Positions 695 through 50,092 of a stretch of 56,568 nucleotides of DNA are shown piece after piece. This DNA is from a virus. Where the stretch lies: the IMG/VR virus record IMGVR_UViG_3300045988_108312; one strand, 5' to 3'. The position numbers and the translations under genes are program-made. The stretch's first letter is position 1. Every line of letters begins with the position of its first letter. Under the pieces are notes generated by a model. It ran no database searches, was not told where the DNA came from, and worked only from the letters and a program-made list of their open reading frames with translations.

Positions 695-2056
695 ATGGAA
701 TGTGTCGCATATATGCGTGTTTCTACGGAGAAACAGGCAGAAGAGGGAAACGGATTAGAAAGTCAAAGGAGAGATATTGAGAATTATTGCAGGAAAAATG
801 AACTGGTAATTACAGATTGGTATATTGATGATGGGTACACAGGCGCAAATATGGACAGACCAGAATTGCAACGGCTTGTATCAGACTGTGATCGTAAGCG
901 CGTAGGCTATGTTGTTGCTTTCAAACTGGATAGAATATCACGTAGCATGGTGGACGGTATCTATCTGATTGAGCGTGTGTTTTTAAAGAACAACGTAGAG
1001 TTTAAGTGTGTACATGATAGTATCAGCTATGATAATCCAATGGAGCAGGCTTATACACAGATGATGGCAGTATTCGCACAACTTGACAAGAATACAATGC
1101 TGTTGCGCATGCGTGGTGGAATGTTAGAACGTGTCAAACAAGGCTACTGGATGGGCGGTGGGAATCTTCCATACTGCTATACATACAGCAAAGATACAGG
1201 AACACTTATACCAATTTCAGAACGCAAGGAACAGGCAAACAAGGCAATGGACTTGTTTTTACAGGGATATTCGGATGTAAAAATCCGTGATATGTTGGGA
1301 TTTAAAAGCGAATTTGTTGTGAAGCAGGTACTTACAAGCCCTGTGAATATTGGAATGATACCGTATAAGGGGAATATCTATCAGGGATTGCATGAACCTA
1401 TATTTAATAAGGAAGTGTTTGAAAAAGCCCAACAATTCAGAGCAATAAGGAAAAACAAAAGGGCAAGTTGCCATAACATCCAAACTAACTTATTGACAGG
1501 TTTGTGTTACTGCGGAATTTGTGGATGCGCTATGAGGTACCAGAAGTGGACGCATGGAAAACATAAGATTTACTGTTGTTCCAGGAATAAGGACTTGCAT
1601 TATCTTCCTAACCACAATCCAAATTGTAATAATACCTTGGAATGGGCTTCGGATATTGAAAAAGCTGTAGAGGACGAAATACTTTTAATATCTGCTAATA
1701 TATCAGACTATAAGCCAAGAGTAAAAGAATCTAAATTGGAAATATTGCAAGGGCAATTAGAAAAAGAGCAGACTAAGCGTAAAAGGCTATATAACCTGTA
1801 TGCAGAGGGTAATGATGATGTTATCGGCATGATTAAAGAAATTGAGAAAGTAATAGAAAATATCCGTGAACAGATCAAGGAAGAATCTGCAATAGAAACA
1901 AATAAAACTAGACAAAATGTATTTAAGAACATAAAAAATCTTGCCGACATTTGGGAAGATATCGACAAGAAACAAAAAAATATGTTACTAAAAAGTATAA
2001 TTGAAAAAATCATAATTAGCAATGGAAATATTGAGATAAAATTGAAAGATTTTTAG
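695..2056 (+). CDS. int: Large serine recombinase (phage integrase)
   Basis: ORF track 653..2056; ATG 695 lies 7 nt after GGAGG (683-687); resolvase motifs YMRVSTEKQ...FKLDRISRS, recombinase domain, Cys-rich zinc ribbon CYCGICGC..YCCS, C-terminal coiled coil. Confidence 0.9.
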   Translation: MECVAYMRVSTEKQAEEGNGLESQRRDIENYCRKNELVITDWYIDDGYTGANMDRPELQRLVSDCDRKRVGYVVAFKLDRISRSMVDGIYLIERVFLKNNVEFKCVHDSISYDNPMEQAYTQMMAVFAQLDKNTMLLRMRGGMLERVKQGYWMGGGNLPYCYTYSKDTGTLIPISERKEQANKAMDLFLQGYSDVKIRDMLGFKSEFVVKQVLTSPVNIGMIPYKGNIYQGLHEPIFNKEVFEKAQQFRAIRKNKRASCHNIQTNLLTGLCYCGICGCAMRYQKWTHGKHKIYCCSRNKDLHYLPNHNPNCNNTLEWASDIEKAVEDEILLISANISDYKPRVKESKLEILQGQLEKEQTKRKRLYNLYAEGNDDVIGMIKEIEKVIENIREQIKEESAIETNKTRQNVFKNIKNLADIWEDIDKKQKNMLLKSIIEKIIISNGNIEIKLKDF

Positions 2057-2086: not shown

Positions 2087-2123
2087 TTTACTGCTAATAT
2101 AGGTATATTAATTTAGCAGTAAA
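2087..2123. other. Candidate attP core: perfect 11-bp inverted repeat TTTACTGCTAA / TTAGCAGTAAA separated by 15 bp
   Basis: Read directly; lies 31 bp downstream of the serine integrase stop; not followed by a T-run, so unlikely to be a terminator. Confidence 0.35.
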
Positions 2124-2261
2124 ATAACGCCATACCCATGGCATGGGGTTAGTGCTAATGTGCATATTTACTACACTTTTGAGTCATTATAGTGGCAATT
2201 ATTAGGCGCTATTAATGGCTCTTTTTGTTTTATGATAATTACAAAGGGAGGAATAGAACCC

Positions 2262-7944: not shown

Positions 7945-8532
7945 CTAAAAAATATAATCTAATATTGGATAATCACATATAAGTCTGTTTTTATCAAATC
8001 CTCTAAAATAATTAAAATCGTTAGTGCTTAGATTACAACTGTCCTTTTGCATCAGCGAATATTCGTATGCGCTGCATTCTCTATATCCAGAACCAAAACG
8101 ACCAAATTTGACCGCCTGTGCTGTATCTGGAGTGTATACATACGCTTTAAATTTCACCCATTTTATGCGACTAGCAACATCTTTTGTAAGCATAACAGAT
8201 ATGCGCTCTTTTAAAAATAAAGGCGCATAAATGGCTTTTATTTCTTGCGGAGCAACACGATCAACGATAAATTCATCGTAATTTCCCGCGTTGTAATCAT
8301 CTTTGCAAAACTCTACATGCCTTGCGTTTATTTCTTCCCGGATTTCTAACAAAATTAGTCCGTACATTACTAAGCAATTCCGATTTTTAGGCTTAAATAA
8401 GTAAACAACATTAGTCGGATTATTTGCTCTTCTTCCGTCATCCCAGTTATTATTTTTGCACTCGTCCATGGATAGAATGCCTTTTTTTAGTATAGATTCT
8501 AAATCTTTTATATCCACGTTTTTATAATACAT
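7945..8532 (-). CDS. Hypothetical 195-aa protein; the N-terminal ~110 aa resemble a compact DarT/DUF4433-type ADP-ribosyltransferase fold (speculative)
   Basis: ATG 8532 lies 5 nt after GAGGTGG (the track GTG 8541 is inside the RBS); ordered motifs YYKNVDIKDLESILKKGIL / VVYLFKPKNRNCL / DEFIVDRVAPQEIKAIY. Confidence 0.5.
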   Translation of the reverse strand: MYYKNVDIKDLESILKKGILSMDECKNNNWDDGRRANNPTNVVYLFKPKNRNCLVMYGLILLEIREEINARHVEFCKDDYNAGNYDEFIVDRVAPQEIKAIYAPLFLKERISVMLTKDVASRIKWVKFKAYVYTPDTAQAVKFGRFGSGYRECSAYEYSLMQKDSCNLSTNDFNYFRGFDKNRLICDYPILDYIF

Positions 8533-9442: not shown

Positions 9443-9552
9443 TTAAGCACTAATGTATATTGACAAAATATACAAAATTAAGCACTAATAACATATCAGA
9501 AATTATGCATTTTTATTAAGCACTAAAAAGTTATTGACTATTTAAGCACTAA
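9443..9552. promoter_or_regulatory. Four copies of operator-like box TTAAGCACTAA(T) in the divergent control region
   Basis: Copies at 9443, 9478, 9516, 9542 (spacings 35/38/26 bp); the fourth fills the spacer of the promoter at 9534. Confidence 0.65.
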
Positions 9553-9562
9553 TATATATAAT
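9534..9562 (+). promoter_or_regulatory. Consensus sigma-A promoter with an operator in the spacer
   Basis: TTGACT (9534-39), 17 nt containing TTAAGCACTAAT, TATAAT (9557-62). Confidence 0.65.
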
Positions 9563-9594
9563 GTAGTTATAACAATGCAAAGGAGGTTTGAAGC

Positions 9595-9792
9595 ATGGCA
9601 GTAACAGAAAATGAGAAAGCACTAAAAAACAGGCAAGCAGTAAAAAAATGTATGGAAAGCAGAGACAGAATAAACATAATATTACCGCAAGGCACAGTAG
9701 ACAGAATAAATGCATATGGATTAAAAACAAGCGCATTTGCGAGACAGTTAATATTAGAAGAACTGGCAAGAATGGACAAAATGAAAAAATAA
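9595..9792 (+). CDS. Ribbon-helix-helix (Arc/CopG-like) regulator
   Basis: RBS AAAGGAGG; DRINIILPQGTVDRINAYGLKTSAFARQLILEEL matches the 'r.s..lPkGtkerI...G.S.N.fi' RHH pattern also seen in 12353..12913. Confidence 0.7.
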   Translation: MAVTENEKALKNRQAVKKCMESRDRINIILPQGTVDRINAYGLKTSAFARQLILEELARMDKMKK

Positions 9793-9798
9793 TTTGAA

Positions 9799-9845
9799 TT
9801 AAGCACTAATTAAGCGTTGACAATTAAGCACTAATATGTTATTGT
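9799..9845 (+). promoter_or_regulatory. Two more TTAAGCACTAAT boxes (9799, 9824; degenerate TTAAGCGTTGA at 9810) overlapping a promoter: TTGACA (9817-22), 17 nt, TATTGT (9840-45)
   Basis: Read directly; the box again occupies the -35/-10 spacer. Confidence 0.55.
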
Positions 9846-12913: not shown

Positions 12914-12949
12914 ACATTAAAATGTTTCCGCAATTTACCCGTTGTTTCC

Positions 12950-13026
12950 ATTTTGTATACATTTTGTATACGTAGGTTAGTATAGGTTAGGTAAGGTTAG
13001 TATAGGTTATATATCGCGTATACGCG
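12950..13026. repeat. Repeat block: ATTTTGTATAC x2 tandem (12950-71), four 10-bp phased units nnTAGGTTAG (12971-13010), perfect 12-bp palindrome CGCGTATACGCG (13015-26)
   Basis: Read directly; lies in the 770-bp ORF-free region upstream of terS. Confidence 0.85.
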
Positions 13027-13250
13027 CGAGACAACAAAAATTTTCCTGTTAAGAGCAAAACAGTTTTTAAATTTTGGATTTAAAGACAGATTTTTCTTAT
13101 CGGTTTAAATTTCCATTTGCGGATATATCTAACCGATTATCTACTGGATAATTTTAAAATATCCATTGCATTTTTATTTATTATGCGATATCCTACATAT
13201 GCCGACGGGGGCTCTATATACACTCAAGGGTATAAATAATTAACACATTT

Positions 13251-13285
13251 TACAGGTTAGGGGATTACTCCTAGCCTGTTTTTAG
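13251..13285 (+). terminator. Terminator-like hairpin inside the non-coding region
   Basis: ACAGGTTAGG-ggattact-CCTAGCCTGT followed by TTTTT. Confidence 0.55.
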
Positions 13286-13682
13286 TGCATGCAACAATGC
13301 GATTATGACCATTTTAAGCCCCTATAATTAATTTATATATAATATAAATGGGTGTATAAATTATACCATACCTTTAGGCTATATATCCCCCAGAGGTATA
13401 TATTTATATATAGCAATATTATAGTGCGTAATATGGTCAGAACTGGATAAAATATTTTTTTAAAAACCTATTGCATTTTTATAAAATGTGTTTTATTCTG
13501 TTTATAAGCTCATACGAGAGCTTTACACGATTAAGATTTACAGGACAGCTCATAATAGCTGTTTTATACGCAAGAAAAGCCTTTTAAGGCAAATATGTTT
13601 TACTTATGCTGTATTTATAACATGCAGTGTTTGTATTCTTATTTGGTTTAAAGGGCTTTTTGTTTTTCAAGGAGGTGTAAAC

Positions 13683-39288: not shown

Positions 39289-39305
39289 TTTGTCGAATTT
39301 TACCG

Positions 39306-39329
39306 CAGAATATGTCGAACGTATTTTCT
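39306..39329. promoter_or_regulatory. Operator-like element CAGAATA-tgtc-GAACGTAT-TTTCT (copy 1)
   Basis: Shares the blocks CAGAATA/GAACGTAT/(A/T)TTCT with 39470-39489. Confidence 0.5.
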
Positions 39330-39465
39330 TGAATCCTTGCACTTATAGAAGTACAATAAACTTGTCCACAGTGATGTGGTGCTTCAAGTTCTGGCAGGGG
39401 CGGTATTGCTATTGGCGTGGCGTACCGTCCTGTAACCATACTACAAAACAAATGTTCTAATTTAG

Positions 39466-39494
39466 TTGACAGAATAGAACGTATATTCTATAAT
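39466..39494 (+). promoter_or_regulatory. Consensus promoter (TTGACA, 17 nt, TATAAT) whose spacer is operator-like copy 2 (AGAATA..TATTCT inverted repeat)
   Basis: TTGACA 39466-71; TATAAT 39489-94. Confidence 0.65.
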
Positions 39495-39527: not shown

Positions 39528-39695
39528 ATGAATCAGAGTTGTAGAGAGGGCAAGGATATGGCAGGGGATAATGGCAATGATGCAGAATTTTACAAGAGAG
39601 AATCAAAAAAGATGCTAGATGAAATAAAAGATTTAAAGAATTTACAATTCATCTATGTATACATAAAAAGAACAATGAAGTATGAAAAGGACTAG
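39528..39695 (+). CDS. Hypothetical 55-aa protein (moron candidate)
   Basis: ATG 39528 after CAGGGG; own promoter and terminator. Confidence 0.5.
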   Translation: MNQSCREGKDMAGDNGNDAEFYKRESKKMLDEIKDLKNLQFIYVYIKRTMKYEKD

Positions 39696-39724
39696 GGTTT
39701 GCGCAATGCCCTAGTCCTTTTTTT
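39689..39724. terminator. Bidirectional terminator between convergent genes
   Basis: GGACTAGGG-11 nt-CCCTAGTCC flanked by A-run/T-run. Confidence 0.8.
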
Positions 39725-40085
39725 ATTTGTTTGTAATTGCGTCTATCAAATCTTCTAACTTTTGCCAACCATCAGAATCTAGTTTAGCAAGTGCTAAAAT
39801 CAATCTTTTTTGAAAATTATCATCATTAAGATGCTGAACATCAGATAGAAAATTAGATATTTCCGCTTCTTTTGGTAAATTTACAAACATTTCTCCAGTT
39901 CCATTCAAAAGCCATTCTTCATTAACATTAAATTTCTCACATATGTCAGAAATAGTTCTGCTAGATGGTTTTTTTATTCCAGATTCAACTTGCGCTATAA
40001 AATTTCGGGAAAGACCAATCTTTGAAGAAAATTCTTCTTGCGTCAATTCTAAATGACTTCTCAATTTTTTTATTCGTTCATTCAA
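39723..40085 (-). CDS. CI-like repressor (XRE-family HTH)
   Basis: TTG 40085 lies 6 nt after AAAGGAGGG and downstream of the mapped -10; IKKLRSHLELTQEEFSSKIGLSRNFIAQVESGIKKPS. Confidence 0.8.
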   Translation of the reverse strand: MNERIKKLRSHLELTQEEFSSKIGLSRNFIAQVESGIKKPSSRTISDICEKFNVNEEWLLNGTGEMFVNLPKEAEISNFLSDVQHLNDDNFQKRLILALAKLDSDGWQKLEDLIDAITNK

Positions 40086-40107
40086 TATTTTCCCTCCTTT
40101 CATAATT

Positions 40108-40175
40108 ACTATACAACAAAAAAGTCCCCTAGTCAACAAAAAAGTATTGACAAAATGTTTCCAAGGGACTATACT
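40108..40175. promoter_or_regulatory. Divergent immunity promoters with repeats
   Basis: Leftward: TTGACT (rc 40131-36), 17 nt, TATAGT (rc 40108-13). Rightward: TTGACA 40147-52, 17 nt, TATACT 40170-75. CAACAAAAAAGT at 40114 and 40134 (third, shorter copy at 40189). IR AGTCCC/GGGACT. Confidence 0.6.
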
Positions 40176-40225: not shown

Positions 40226-40417
40226 ATGGTAAGTAGCAACATGACAATTGAAATTAATGGTGAAAAGAACAGATTAGAGGATTGTGTAGAAAGCATAGCT
40301 CTGACGATTTCAAGAACCGTTATGGAAGAAAAAGAAAAGAGAACCGAAGATGTGTTGCAGGAATGCAAAATACTCGATTCTCTATCCAATGCCTTAATCG
40401 CTATTAGAGCAAATTAG
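40226..40417 (+). CDS. First rightward early gene (Cro position, no recognisable HTH)
   Basis: RBS AAAGGAAAGAGG. Confidence 0.5.
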   Translation: MVSSNMTIEINGEKNRLEDCVESIALTISRTVMEEKEKRTEDVLQECKILDSLSNALIAIRAN

Positions 40418-40581
40418 CGGAAAGGATTTTTAATAATTTCTACTTTTGCAGGCGTGTTATCAATCGTATCCATAAATTCATCATAGTATTTGCGGTACTC
40501 GGACTTGAATTTTTCTACATCACCTTGATAACCATTTATCTTAGCATTTGCATAAGCAGAAGCAAGAGCAACATTATCCAA
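40414..40581 (-). CDS. Hypothetical 55-aa protein on the minus strand within the early region
   Basis: TTG 40581 lies 8 nt after AAGGAGGTG; the track start 40686 lacks an RBS. Confidence 0.45.
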   Translation of the reverse strand: MDNVALASAYANAKINGYQGDVEKFKSEYRKYYDEFMDTIDNTPAKVEIIKNPFR

Positions 40582-40640
40582 CAGTATCACCTCCTTATTA
40601 TCTGATAAGGAGAGTATACCACAGAAAGGAAGTGAAATGA

Positions 40641-40787
40641 ATGAGTGAAAAGGAAAAGCAGATTGTTGAGAAGTTAAAAGATGCAATCCCTAAAATGTCA
40701 GACTTTGACAAGGGCTATATTCTTGGCAAGGTCGAGAACATGGCAGAAAATTCTGCGAAAAAAGAGGTTTCCGAAAGCAAAGAATAA
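40641..40787 (+). CDS. Hypothetical 48-aa protein
   Basis: RBS GAAAGGAAGTG; below the track cutoff. Confidence 0.45.
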   Translation: MSEKEKQIVEKLKDAIPKMSDFDKGYILGKVENMAENSAKKEVSESKE

Positions 40788-40815
40788 TTTATCAGAATTT
40801 AGGAAAGGAGAAGAA

Positions 40816-41646
40816 TTGAATAAATTAATTCACATTGGAAATGCTGATATTTCCATCAAAGAGTACAAAGGAAAAAGAGTGGTCACGTTTAAGGACATTG
40901 ATATGGTTCATGAAAGACCGGACGGAACAGCAAGAAAAAGATTTTCAGACAACAGAAAGCATTTTGTTGAGGGAGAAGATTATTTCGTTTTGAAACCGTC
41001 AGACCTTGAAAATACTGAACTGTCCGAAAAACGGACACTAGAAAATGTAGTAATGAGTAACTTCGGAACAGCACTCATTACCGAACAGGGCTATCTAATG
41101 TTGGTCAAGTCATTCACGGATGATTTGGCATGGGAAGTGCAAAGAAAATTAGTTTCTTCTTATTTCAATGTACATCAAAGCGTCAACAATCAGTTATCTC
41201 CAGAATTGCAAGCATTGCAAGGACTTCTTAATCAGATGGTTCAAAAAGAACTTGCTGACAAGGAGAGAGACAGGCAGATCGCCAAGGCACAGGAAACAGC
41301 ACAGAAAGCAATAGAAACAACTAACAGTATCAAAGAAGCTGTAAAACCTGTTTTCGATAATTGGCGTGATGAAATCAATGTTAAATTTAATCGTATTCAG
41401 AAAAGTGCATCTACACCATTTAATCTTTTACGTACAGAAATGTATTGTGAATTGGAACGTAGAGCAGGATGCGATTTGTCTACCAGATTAAGAAACCGTA
41501 AACAGCGCATGACTGATAATGGATGCACGAAAACAGAAATTAATAAGTTGAATCGCATGGATGTAATTGAGGAAGATAAGAAATTACGTGAGATATTTAC
41601 AAAAATAGTTTCAGAGTATGAAATTGAGTACTGCGCTTTTAAATAA
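40816..41646 (+). CDS. ORF6N/KilA-N-type antirepressor-like protein (paralogue of 6157..6849)
   Basis: TTG 40816 lies 5 nt after AGGAAAGGAG; IKEYKGKRVVTFKDIDMVHERP...HFVEGEDYFVL...ITEQGYLMLVKSFTDDLAWEVQRKLVSSYF. Confidence 0.75.
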   Translation: MNKLIHIGNADISIKEYKGKRVVTFKDIDMVHERPDGTARKRFSDNRKHFVEGEDYFVLKPSDLENTELSEKRTLENVVMSNFGTALITEQGYLMLVKSFTDDLAWEVQRKLVSSYFNVHQSVNNQLSPELQALQGLLNQMVQKELADKERDRQIAKAQETAQKAIETTNSIKEAVKPVFDNWRDEINVKFNRIQKSASTPFNLLRTEMYCELERRAGCDLSTRLRNRKQRMTDNGCTKTEINKLNRMDVIEEDKKLREIFTKIVSEYEIEYCAFK

Positions 41647-42772: not shown

Positions 42773-42877
42773 ATGGGAGATTTTACAATTGCGGAAGTAG
42801 AAAAAATGTGTGAGGACTTAGGTGTTGGAGTTCTTATCAATGATGGAAAAATCGTAGGATTTGAAGTCGAGGAATGA
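42773..42877 (+). CDS. Hypothetical 34-aa protein
   Basis: Short ORF filling the gap; overlaps the next start. Confidence 0.35.
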   Translation: MGDFTIAEVEKMCEDLGVGVLINDGKIVGFEVEE

Positions 42878-42879
42878 TT

Positions 42880-43230
42880 ATGGATAACAGACTTAGAAAA
42901 ATAGAGAATGCCTTGATTGAAATGGGAATCGAGCCTAGTATGCGTGGATTCTACTATATCGTGGAACTGACTGTAGGAAAGATAATAAATCCGACAAAGA
43001 AACTACAGGATATGTATGACGAAATTGCATCTGAACATGGAATTACAGGCGGTTCAGTCCATAAAGTTGTAACACGCACAGTAGAACTTGCGGACTCAAG
43101 AACTCCTACCTACAAAAAGTATATCGGGAGTGAGTTCAAAACGAACAGCGGTTTTGTTTCCCTACTGGCATTCAACATCAGAAGGGAGCTGGAAGATGAA
43201 CAGGATAACGCTATGCGGAAGGATGAATGA
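42880..43230 (+). CDS. Receiver-less Spo0A C-terminal (DNA-binding effector) domain homologue
   Basis: ATG 42880 lies 6 nt after GAGGA. EMGIEPSMRGFYYIVEL / MYDEIASEHGITGGSVHKVVTRTVELA / KTNSGFVSLLAFNIR align with B. subtilis Spo0A EIGVPAHIKGYLYLREA / [27 protein letters not shown] / KPTNSEFIAMVADKLR (from memory). Confidence 0.7.
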   Translation: MDNRLRKIENALIEMGIEPSMRGFYYIVELTVGKIINPTKKLQDMYDEIASEHGITGGSVHKVVTRTVELADSRTPTYKKYIGSEFKTNSGFVSLLAFNIRRELEDEQDNAMRKDE

Positions 43231-43768
43231 AAAACCTAAATACAGCCACACTGTAGGTAAAATCCGATTCTACAGCTTTCAAATGATTGTTAGACGATTA
43301 AGCGGATATGAGGACATTATTCCATGTATCGCAGAACAGGGGATTGCGAATCAGATTCAAAACGGAACAGTACATAAAATAACAGGTGCTATCCATAGTA
43401 GACAGGTGTTTGACGGGAAACGGACGCACTTAGAGTTATTTGTCCATGTAGAATCTATATCAATGGTATTTGAAGCAGATGGAAACCATGTAGAAATAAC
43501 AGGTGTTATTGTAAAAAAACCAGTATTTAGACAGACACAAAGTGGAAGATATATAGCAGAGTTGCTAGTGGTATCTTCACGGAAGAATGGAAAAACGGAT
43601 TGCATACCGTGTATCGTGTGGTCAGTAAATGCTTTATTTGCAAAGAATTTGGAAATAGGGCAGACAGTTACTATAAAAGGAAGATTCCAGTCAAGGCAGT
43701 ATGAGAAAGACGGACGGACTAAGACAGTTTACGAATTGTCTGGGAATGAATTTAAGTTAGGAGAGTGA
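43196..43768 (+). CDS. Tandem OB-fold (SSB/PriB-like x2) protein
   Basis: ATG 43196 after GGGAGCTGGAAG; two repeats of I(T/E)(L/I).G.....P........(R/Y)......(V/L)..........D.IPC... G..V.I.G...SRQ. Confidence 0.55.
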   Translation: MNRITLCGRMNEKPKYSHTVGKIRFYSFQMIVRRLSGYEDIIPCIAEQGIANQIQNGTVHKITGAIHSRQVFDGKRTHLELFVHVESISMVFEADGNHVEITGVIVKKPVFRQTQSGRYIAELLVVSSRKNGKTDCIPCIVWSVNALFAKNLEIGQTVTIKGRFQSRQYEKDGRTKTVYELSGNEFKLGE

Positions 43769-49373: not shown

Positions 49374-49688
49374 ATGAAATTGTATTTTTATATACTGGAA
49401 GAACCATATAATGGTAAACCATTTATTCAGTTTGAAGAGTGTGAAGCTGACGAGAAACCTAAGACTTATTGGTTGCATGTACGCCCTATAGGTTTTTATT
49501 GGAAAAAAATAAGTAAAGAAAATATTGGTAAACGAATCGAGAACGCTGTTATATTGCTTGAAAAAGATGATTTTCTTGCTAGAAGTATTTTCGCTGAATC
49601 AATTAATAAAAAAATATCTGATGAAGAAAAACAGGTGAAATGGTTAAGAGAACAGTTAGAAGTAGTAGAGAAAGGAGAAATACAGTGA
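49374..49688 (+). CDS. Hypothetical 104-aa protein
   Basis: ORF track; operon packing. Confidence 0.55.
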   Translation: MKLYFYILEEPYNGKPFIQFEECEADEKPKTYWLHVRPIGFYWKKISKENIGKRIENAVILLEKDDFLARSIFAESINKKISDEEKQVKWLREQLEVVEKGEIQ

Positions 49689-50092
49689 ACAGTGTAGATA
49701 TATCAGGAAGAATGACAAGAGATCCAGAAGTAAGGTATGCGGCAGATAAGCCATTTGCAAAATTCTGCCTTGCAGTAAATCGCAGATTCAAACAGGACGG
49801 ACAGGCAAATGCAGATTTTATTAACTGCGTGGCGTTTGGTAAAACTGCTGAATTTATCGAAAAATACGGTCGCAAGGGCGTTAAGTTTGAAATTCATGGT
49901 CGTTGGCAGACTGGAAGCTATAAGAACAAGGACGGTCAGACGGTATACACAAATGACTGCCTTGTTGAGCAGATAGAGTTTTCAGAGAGTAAAAGCAGTA
50001 ACAGCGGTGGTAATGATAGTCCGAGTACGCAGGAGAATGACGGATTTATGAATATACCGGACGGAATAGACGAAGAGTTACCATTTAATTAG
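49685..50092 (+). CDS. ssb: Single-stranded DNA-binding protein
   Basis: GTG 49685 after AAAGGAGAAATACA; OB-fold ISGRMTRDPEVRY...NCVAFGKTAEF...GRWQTGSYKNKDGQTVYT and the acidic tip DGIDEELPF. Confidence 0.85.
   Translation: MNSVDISGRMTRDPEVRYAADKPFAKFCLAVNRRFKQDGQANADFINCVAFGKTAEFIEKYGRKGVKFEIHGRWQTGSYKNKDGQTVYTNDCLVEQIEFSESKSSNSGGNDSPSTQENDGFMNIPDGIDEELPFN

Follow-up and report, generated by a model that had tools for sequence, protein, structure and literature searches.

What would a temperate phage do with the DNA-reading domain of the sporulation regulator Spo0A? The question is raised by the IMG/VR virus record IMGVR_UViG_3300045988_108312, a stretch of 56,568 nucleotides that is called the window here. 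With a GC content of about 38%, the genome is that of a temperate siphovirus-like phage, and its genes include those for terminase, integrase, repressor, antirepressor, RecT and SSB proteins. At 42880-43230 it holds a gene for a 116-aa protein, which a preliminary description made from the letters alone took to be a Spo0A effector domain lacking its receiver and able to act through 0A boxes. The first part of that proposal stands. The open reading frame (ORF) is exactly as described, and it encodes a genuine receiver-less homologue of the Spo0A effector domain with its helix-turn-helix (HTH) intact. The second part is more difficult. The reading favoured here, tentatively and with a probability of roughly 0.4, is that the protein is a putative DNA-binding regulator independent of the phosphorelay, in which scaffold and partner surfaces are conserved and the reading head has been re-targeted in an allele-specific manner.

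The assignment to the Spo0A family has several supports. The Pfam profile Spo0A_C (PF08769) matches the protein with E=1.9e-6 and 28.2 bits over profile positions 1-101 of 104, against a gathering cut-off of 25 bits, and a precomputed PF08769 match is also present on five relatives. The blocks lined up earlier, including the recognition-helix region and the C-terminal helix, are the ones that HMMER aligns, with GITGGSVHKVVTRTVELA opposite the recognition-helix block and KTNSGFVSLLAF opposite PTNSEFIAMVAD. PHROGs places the protein in phrog_24603, of unknown function. Its pairwise match to Spo0A chains in the PDB is weak (E ~0.1), and a profile of 12 relatives matches the Spo0A C-domain chains 1fc3 (E=8.9e-6) and 1lq1 (E=1.2e-5). 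An AlphaFold2 model has six helices, with a predicted local distance difference test score (pLDDT) of 89.1 and a predicted template-modelling score (pTM) of 0.82. When the PDB is searched with Foldseek, the top seven matches are all chains of 1FC3 or 1LQ1 (template-modelling score, TM, 0.68-0.79; probability 1.00) and no other fold appears below E=1.

Could the similarity be due to chance, or the gene be a decaying fragment without function? Two observations might invite this suspicion, the weak pairwise match and a Pfam score just 3 bits over the cut-off. However, the profile and fold evidence is specific, and the gene is tightly packed into an operon. It is also present in 22 IMG/VR gut viral contigs and on many metagenome contigs, the identical 116-aa protein being found on six of the latter and 90% relatives on hundreds. 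A codon comparison adds that changes over conserved residues in helices aA, aB and aF are synonymous, and purifying selection is therefore indicated. Foldseek, the relatives' profile and the codon comparison effectively refute chance similarity or decay, which is left with hardly any credibility.

The lack of a phospho-receiver was also correctly described. There is no such domain in the 116 residues, and the three ORFs upstream have no Pfam match. The NCBIfam model TIGR02875 (spore_0_A equivalog) scores 19.5 bits against a cut-off of 200 bits, with model positions 151-256 of 262 covered. In other words, the protein falls below the cut-off for a Spo0A orthologue and corresponds only to the C-terminal part of the model. 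With no receiver to be phosphorylated, the protein must act independently of the host phosphorelay. The wider family is large, with 332 representative clusters at E<=1e-3 in an exhaustive profile search, mostly stand-alone proteins of 100-120 aa. There are also longer members of 350-470 aa (P0015, P0018, P0020, P0050, P0107 and P0136) with two to four tandem Spo0A_C domains, the majority of which have canonical recognition helices. At least one further protein, P0096, has an apparent N-terminal receiver-like region and two effector domains.

What has become of the reading head? It was compared across 144 aligned sequences, consisting of the phage protein, the sequences of two Spo0A structures and stand-alone proteins 90-165 aa long. 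In B. subtilis Spo0A the base-contacting residues are reportedly E213, R214 and R217, as Zhao and colleagues are said to have described in 2002. At the matching positions E is found in 118/144 sequences, R in 113/144 and R in 121/144, with the complete E-R-R triad in 100/144. The recognition helix of the phage protein, GSVHKVVTRTVELAD, has H-K-T instead. The same loss runs through its clade, where E-R-R occurs in none of 14 members (0/14) and the triads are HKT, HKD, EHR, TTR, TSR, ESI, SKD and YTG. ERR or EKR is retained by several of the nearest relatives beyond the clade, and for this reason the loss looks derived. A K62/R66 pattern turns up again in P0006 and in P0012, which is a distant protein.

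The HTH as a whole is the least conserved part of the protein within the clade. Pairwise identity is 65% in aA, 66% in aE and 75% in aF, compared with 41% in aC, 24% in the turn and 31% in aD. The buried aD positions V60, V/I64 and V/I68 are nevertheless retained, as is T56, and the variable positions on the aD surface remain S, H, K, T or R, residues that would still suit DNA reading. There is more to the variation than drift at single sites. In phages that share 85-97% identity elsewhere, a central stretch of ~230 nt in the gene (42935-43165, codons ~19-95; 8056-8286 in the related locus L025) cannot be aligned where one carries the HKT and the other the EHR allele. It follows that phages exchange the HTH region as an allelic cassette.

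This pattern prompts a different thought. What if the protein does not read DNA at all? It might be a decoy or anti-Spo0A factor whose aA, aE and aF bind a partner of Spo0A (sigma-A or sigma-H region 4, RNA polymerase, or Spo0A itself on DNA), which would block Spo0A-dependent transcription in infected cells. The reading triad does drift freely, and the best conserved parts of the clade are aA together with aE and aF, the equivalents of the activation surface of Spo0A. The pI of 5.75 and an acidic C-terminal tail fit as well. The idea accounts poorly for the retention of T56 and the buried HTH residues, and its surface positions stay rich in K/R/H/S/T instead of turning acidic. Moreover, the conservation of aF is partly forced. 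The first 35 nt of an SSB-family gene and its ribosome-binding site overlap the 3' end of the Spo0A_C gene, there are zero synonymous changes in the overlap, and the last ~20 Spo0A_C codons are conserved as nucleotides because the SSB ribosome-binding site and start lie there. A decoy of this kind must be considered quite improbable.

If the favoured reading of a re-targeted regulator is to be weighed against simple mimicry of Spo0A, the 0A boxes of the phage become important. As a class they are unremarkable. TGTCGAA occurs 3 times in the window against 6.0 expected, and TGNCGAA 21 times against 21.2, which rules out a general enrichment. However, two of the perfect boxes form a direct repeat in an intergenic position past the last gene ahead of the lysogeny module, and the second box ends 9 bp upstream of a -35-like hexamer. 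The arrangement is well kept. A TGNCGAA pair lies at the same place in 25/26 related loci that cover the region, either as TGTCGAA-ATT-TG(T/G)CGAA with a 3-bp spacer or with a 15-bp spacer, each version on different upstream flanks. Tandem boxes with a 3-bp spacer are reportedly also the form seen in a Spo0A-DNA crystal. In L025 a perfect box is accompanied by a 6-of-7 box at this site, and the more distant L029 retains a single perfect box there, with GTCGAT-ATT before it. Do the boxes follow the allele of the phage protein? They do not. Phages with the HKT allele and phages with the EHR allele have identical boxes, and one perfect box is still found alongside the SKD allele. Because boxes and allele do not co-vary, the conserved tandem pair is more likely to be read by host Spo0A~P than by the phage protein.

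Two further observations on 0A-like sites should be recorded. A promoter-like site ahead of the integrase gene (612-640, TTGACG-17-TAGAAT) has TGACGAA overlapping its -35 hexamer; since TGNCGAA is not enriched, this may be chance. In addition, a scan of viral contigs for the box-plus-promoter pattern proved too degenerate to be useful, with 119 matches and 20 with promoter geometry. The same geometry is seen in a set of apparently high-GC gut viral contigs (L047, L058, L059, L060, L065, L082, L084, L087, L118 and L136) as TGTCGTT-TTT-TGTCGAAC-N3-TTTTCTTG...TACAAT, and the fetched loci of this group, reaching up to ~13 kb downstream, contain no Spo0A_C gene.

How does faithful mimicry fare, the reading put forward in the earlier description and by Schwartz et al. 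(2023)? The protein would bind canonical 0A boxes without phosphorylation, and would thus force, block or rewire the host Spo0A regulon together with the phage's own tandem 0A-box promoter. In its favour, the effector domain is complete and its HTH intact, most family members keep E-R-R, the lineage conserves a canonical tandem site and the host carries spoIIGA, sigE and sigG. Furthermore, the isolated DNA-binding domain of Spo0A binds legitimate targets unphosphorylated, according to PMC3485338. Set against this are the H-K-T triad and the loss of E-R-R from the whole clade, the poor conservation of the HTH, the lack of co-variation between the boxes and the HKT, EHR and SKD alleles, and the absence of general box enrichment. 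A different kind of objection comes from aE, which is TYKKYIG in the phage protein and SISSLFG in Spo0A. Mutants have placed Spo0A aE residues within the sigma-A-activating region. With H-K-T in place of E-R-R and an HTH that is both least conserved and swapped as a cassette, faithful 0A-box mimicry by this protein is doubtful, and as an account of the locus it is unlikely, though not far-fetched.

Taken as a whole, the earlier interpretation is partly supported, but its claim of action through 0A boxes is weakened for this clade by the lost triad and by a count of perfect boxes that shows no enrichment (3 against ~6 expected). The proposed search of the phage for such boxes gave no overall enrichment and a conserved tandem pair (39291-39319). 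It had also been suggested that host 0A boxes might time the development of the phage. The tandem TGTCGAA pair at a promoter kept in relatives supports this indirectly, but the pair does not co-vary with the phage allele.

Perhaps another motif is the target of the protein. An intergenic k-mer screen found six exact copies of TTAAGCACTAA, mostly as AATTAAGCACTAAT, at 9443-9834. They overlap three promoter-like sites around a 65-aa ORF resembling ribbon-helix-helix (RHH) proteins (9596-9793) and adjoin - strand genes. The motif AATTAAGCACTAAT was rejected as a Spo0A_C target, as it belongs to the separate regulatory region around the RHH-like ORF; 9443-9834 appears to be a repressor-operator unit in its own right, the second in the window. 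A 574-bp AT-rich non-coding region at 12914-13487 contains CATTTTGTATA twice and the palindrome TCGCGTATACGCGCGA, and it may be an origin or packaging site. It also contains four AGGTTAG iterons (12973-13013) with a Spo0A-like head-to-tail spacing of 10-11 bp. These too were rejected, being present with both the HKT and the EHR allele. The flanks of the gene in differing alleles hold no linked divergent site.

All of this has to be set beside the re-targeted regulator, for which DNA binding, targets and any effect on sporulation are inferred. It is envisaged as a putative DNA-binding transcription regulator whose reading head was re-targeted by the replacement of E-R-R with H-K-T. The Spo0A scaffold and the conserved aA, aE and aF surfaces would probably touch RNA polymerase or another partner, while the 0A-box specificity of Spo0A was probably not copied. 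The phage would gain control of its own promoters, host promoters or both during lytic growth, independently of the phosphorelay. Several points weigh against this proposal. No candidate motif tracks the Spo0A_C allele among the intergenic k-mers, iterons and flanks, and the two repeats described above were lost as targets. A site that resembles the 0A box and contains G/C might still be read by K, R and H, and some clade alleles retain E213 and/or R217 (P0008 has E-H-R). The occurrence of a Spo0A-like gene and conserved 0A boxes in one phage lineage suggests a functional link. Finally, PMC3485338 supports contacts of Spo0A with G2, C4 and G5 of the 0A box only.

The second theme of this genome is its integration site. 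Comparison of the window with L208 (attR) and L213 (attL) defines the junctions. In L208 (11363-11935) the phage end ...AACGCCATACC is fused to AATGATCATGGGCGAG..., which encodes SigG residues 94-258, and host genes including SCIFF and its maturase follow. On the other side, L213 (9368-9670), L215 and L218 carry the dcw cluster, ftsZ, spoIIGA and sigE, then the first 96 codons of sigG, and this 5' piece meets the other phage end at ...GCAGTTCC|CATGGCATGGGG. When the attL and attR halves are joined, the result is a 258-aa ORF that scores 446.6 bits on the SigG equivalog NF006071 (cut-off 372 bits) over positions 1-257 of 258 and is identical to proteins named 'SigG [Lachnospiraceae bacterium]'. 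The intact sigG allele is found on at least 1000 contigs, and the exact 5' and 3' split products on 40 and 48 contigs, respectively. From these flanks and the identity of the restored SigG it follows that the host is a gut Lachnospiraceae bacterium and that lysogeny interrupts sigG. The prophage splits the gene, neither half of which can yield a full sigma factor in the lysogen, and precise excision restores the reading frame. The premise of a sporulation programme in the host is thus supported, at the level of genes, by spoIIGA, sigE and sigG. In the retrieved parts of the literature on intervening elements, no prophage interrupting sigG was found. Close by, just upstream of the integrase gene and at the future prophage end, a 70-aa ORF (308-520) has a weak match to a GerE/LuxR-type (sigma region-4-like) HTH. 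The integrase itself is ~30% identical to that of Listeria phage A118.

Which gene might the tandem 0A boxes control? The promoter-like site next to them and a perfect sigma-A-type promoter further on both serve a 55-aa ORF that has no family match in PHROGs or NCBIfam. Between the two promoters, ~110 nt (39360-39465) contain nested hairpins, AACTTG..CCACA-loop-TGTGG..CAAGTT and GGGCGG..CCGCCC, whose stems are kept among relatives and whose loops differ. This segment folds no better than shuffled versions of itself (z=-1.2), and Rfam has no family anywhere in the window. A hairpin at 39672-39734 terminates both the 55-aa ORF and the repressor gene. The recombination directionality factor (RDF) gene of SPbeta, sprB, also has two promoters, and a link between sprB and the 55-aa ORF is an idea only.

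It is tempting to combine these elements into a circuit with three parts. A prophage splits sigG. Host Spo0A~P on the tandem 0A boxes might then induce the small two-promoter gene, possibly an RDF, and the prophage would leave sigG at the onset of sporulation. In lytic growth, the re-targeted and cassette-swapped Spo0A paralogue would give phosphorelay-independent control of the same node, or else block sporulation of infected cells. This is an attractive scheme, and an improbable one.

The surroundings of the Spo0A_C gene fit its description as an early phage gene. It belongs to the early lytic operon of this temperate phage and has the repressor/antirepressor switch on one side and a recombination module of SSB, SbcC-like and RecT genes on the other (Table 1). 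The order is repressor (- strand), antirepressors, small ORFs, Spo0A_C, SSB, a SbcC/Rad50-like ATPase, RecT, a second SSB and a DnaD-like loader. The Spo0A_C ATG has a GAGG ribosome-binding site 7 nt to its 5' side; another in-frame ATG at 42874 was rejected as the start, being too near the GAGG, and homologues begin MDNRL. The stop codon of a 34-aa ORF is so close to this start that both must belong to one operon, and a small ORF likewise lies directly 5' of the gene in L001, L003, L027 and L028. The furthest-upstream + strand promoter-like site before the early genes is at 40147-40175, and direct repeats of CTAnnCAACAAAAAAGT occur at 40109 and 40129. A single transcript from this site to Spo0A_C should not be assumed, because a - strand ORF (40414-40686) is interposed. 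The SSB gene that overlaps Spo0A_C has its Pfam match restricted to the C-terminal ~90 residues, preceded by a ~90-aa N-terminal region. The second SSB-family gene is at 49640-50092. PHROGs and NCBIfam give no function for the neighbouring small ORFs.

Table 1. Features of the window, in order of position, with the predicted helices of the 116-aa protein in residue numbers
Feature	Position	Strand	Remarks
Large serine recombinase (integrase)	695-2056	+	PHROG integrase E=3e-102; Resolvase and Zn_ribbon_recom domains
attP	2100-2170		Crossover dinucleotide CC at 2135-2136; host partner site within sigG
Two perfect 0A boxes TGTCGAA, direct repeat	39291-39297 and 39313-39319	+	Starts 22 bp apart
Promoter-like site TTGAAT-17-TACAAT	39329-39357	+	Directly 3' of the 0A boxes; kept in relatives
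Perfect sigma-A-type promoter TTGACA-17-TATAAT	39466-39494	+	Short palindrome between hexamers; precedes the 55-aa ORF
55-aa ORF	39528-39695	+	Served by both promoters (39329-39357, 39466-39494); hairpin after it
CI-like HTH repressor gene	39723-40139	-	Pfam HTH_19 E=2.5e-18, HTH_3
Early rightward promoter-like site TTGACA-17-TATACT	40147-40175	+	Divergent from the repressor gene
Antirepressor-like gene (ORF6N domain)	40681-41646	+	Upstream, in the same early region as Spo0A_C
34-aa ORF	42773-42877	+	Stop codon 3 nt 5' of the Spo0A_C start
Stand-alone Spo0A_C protein gene, 116 aa	42880-43230	+	ATG at 42880; stop ends at 43230
Predicted helices of the 116-aa protein	residues 3-14 (aA), 22-36 (aB), 42-53 (aC), 57-69 (aD), 76-81 (aE), 92-115 (aF)		aD is the recognition helix
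SSB-family gene	43196-43768	+	Pfam SSB E=2e-16

The position of the gene is kept in relatives down to 48% identity. The order from the repressor (- strand) through antirepressor, small ORFs and Spo0A_C to the recombination genes is conserved in L001, L003 and L027; in L028 it is seen downstream of Spo0A_C, and L029 has an ERF module in place of this one. Cultured phages are remote from this lineage. Megablast of 8 kb around the gene finds no match among GenBank phages, tblastn of the protein against cultured phages gives nothing significant (best E=0.9), and the cultured relatives of the terminase and integrase are distant (<=40% identity).

Why does this matter? Whether many gut Clostridia persist and spread depends on spore formation, a process with which phages are suspected of interfering. 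Until now, phage spo0A genes without a receiver were taken for straightforward constitutive mimics, and at least one clade has abandoned the reading residues of Spo0A. Given that this clade also exchanges its HTH cassette, the mimic reading needs to be tested allele by allele. In addition, a phage of an abundant gut family here combines a sigG prophage, a Spo0A-type operator beside a promoter of the lysogeny module and a Spo0A paralogue in the lytic module.

Among the closest known systems is Spo0A itself. The C-domain of B. subtilis and Geobacillus stearothermophilus Spo0A (1LQ1, 1FC3; PF08769) has the same six-helix fold with the HTH at aC-aD, and the phage protein shares its G-[FY]-x-Y motif, the T before the recognition helix, the buried V/I/A residues of aD and the TN-S-x-F that opens aF. 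The differences are also clear. The phage protein has no receiver or linker, is ~21-23% identical, carries the altered triad and aE already described, and has a shorter aE-aF loop and an acidic C-terminal extension. Deletion derivatives of Spo0A are also instructive. In the constitutively active forms studied in B. subtilis (isolated Spo0A-C and sad67-type deletions), removal of the receiver abolishes control by phosphorylation, and the isolated DNA-binding domain binds legitimate targets (PMC3485338 and PMC10294663). However, those proteins have the native reading head and activation regions, whereas both are altered in this distant paralogue.

Phages with such a gene have been described before. 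Schwartz et al. (2023, mBio 14:e00182-23; PMC10294663) found that human-gut phages carry truncated spo0A genes with the effector domain and no receiver, in 29 virome sequences, and proposed that phage spo0A may regulate sporulation independently of host signals, a function that is inferred there too. The idea of a receiver-less phage spo0A is thus already published for gut phages. The present gene resembles them in being phage-borne, from the human gut, restricted to the effector domain and associated, by its genes, with an endospore-forming Bacillota host. It differs in that its clade has lost the triad that most stand-alone members keep; the retrieved passages contain no analysis of DNA-reading residues. 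No experimental follow-up of phage spo0A was found in the literature. New here are a reading head that has diverged and is swapped as a cassette, a promoter with conserved tandem 0A boxes, and a phage of Lachnospiraceae that interrupts sigG.

Two other systems bear on the operator and the integration site. The phages phi29 and Nf sense host Spo0A through 0A boxes in the phage genome (PMC2731898), and they likewise have functional-looking 0A boxes beside promoters, by which host Spo0A~P can steer their development. They are lytic Bacillus podoviruses and are not known to have a Spo0A-like gene, whereas the present phage is a temperate phage of Lachnospiraceae whose lysogeny module contains one conserved tandem site and which also encodes a Spo0A_C paralogue. 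The other precedent is provided by intervening elements, namely skin in sigK, SPbeta in spsM and gin in gerE (PMC5025042, PMC4191935, PMC5499854 and PMC5595907, each in the part retrieved). As in the skin/SPbeta type, the element is a prophage with its own large serine recombinase, the gene that it splits serves sporulation, precise excision restores that gene and a small gene with two promoters lies nearby. However, the cases described in those parts affect mother-cell genes, and sigG does its work in the forespore, the germline. If excision is indeed coupled to sporulation, the skin/SPbeta paradigm would extend from a mother-cell gene to a forespore gene.

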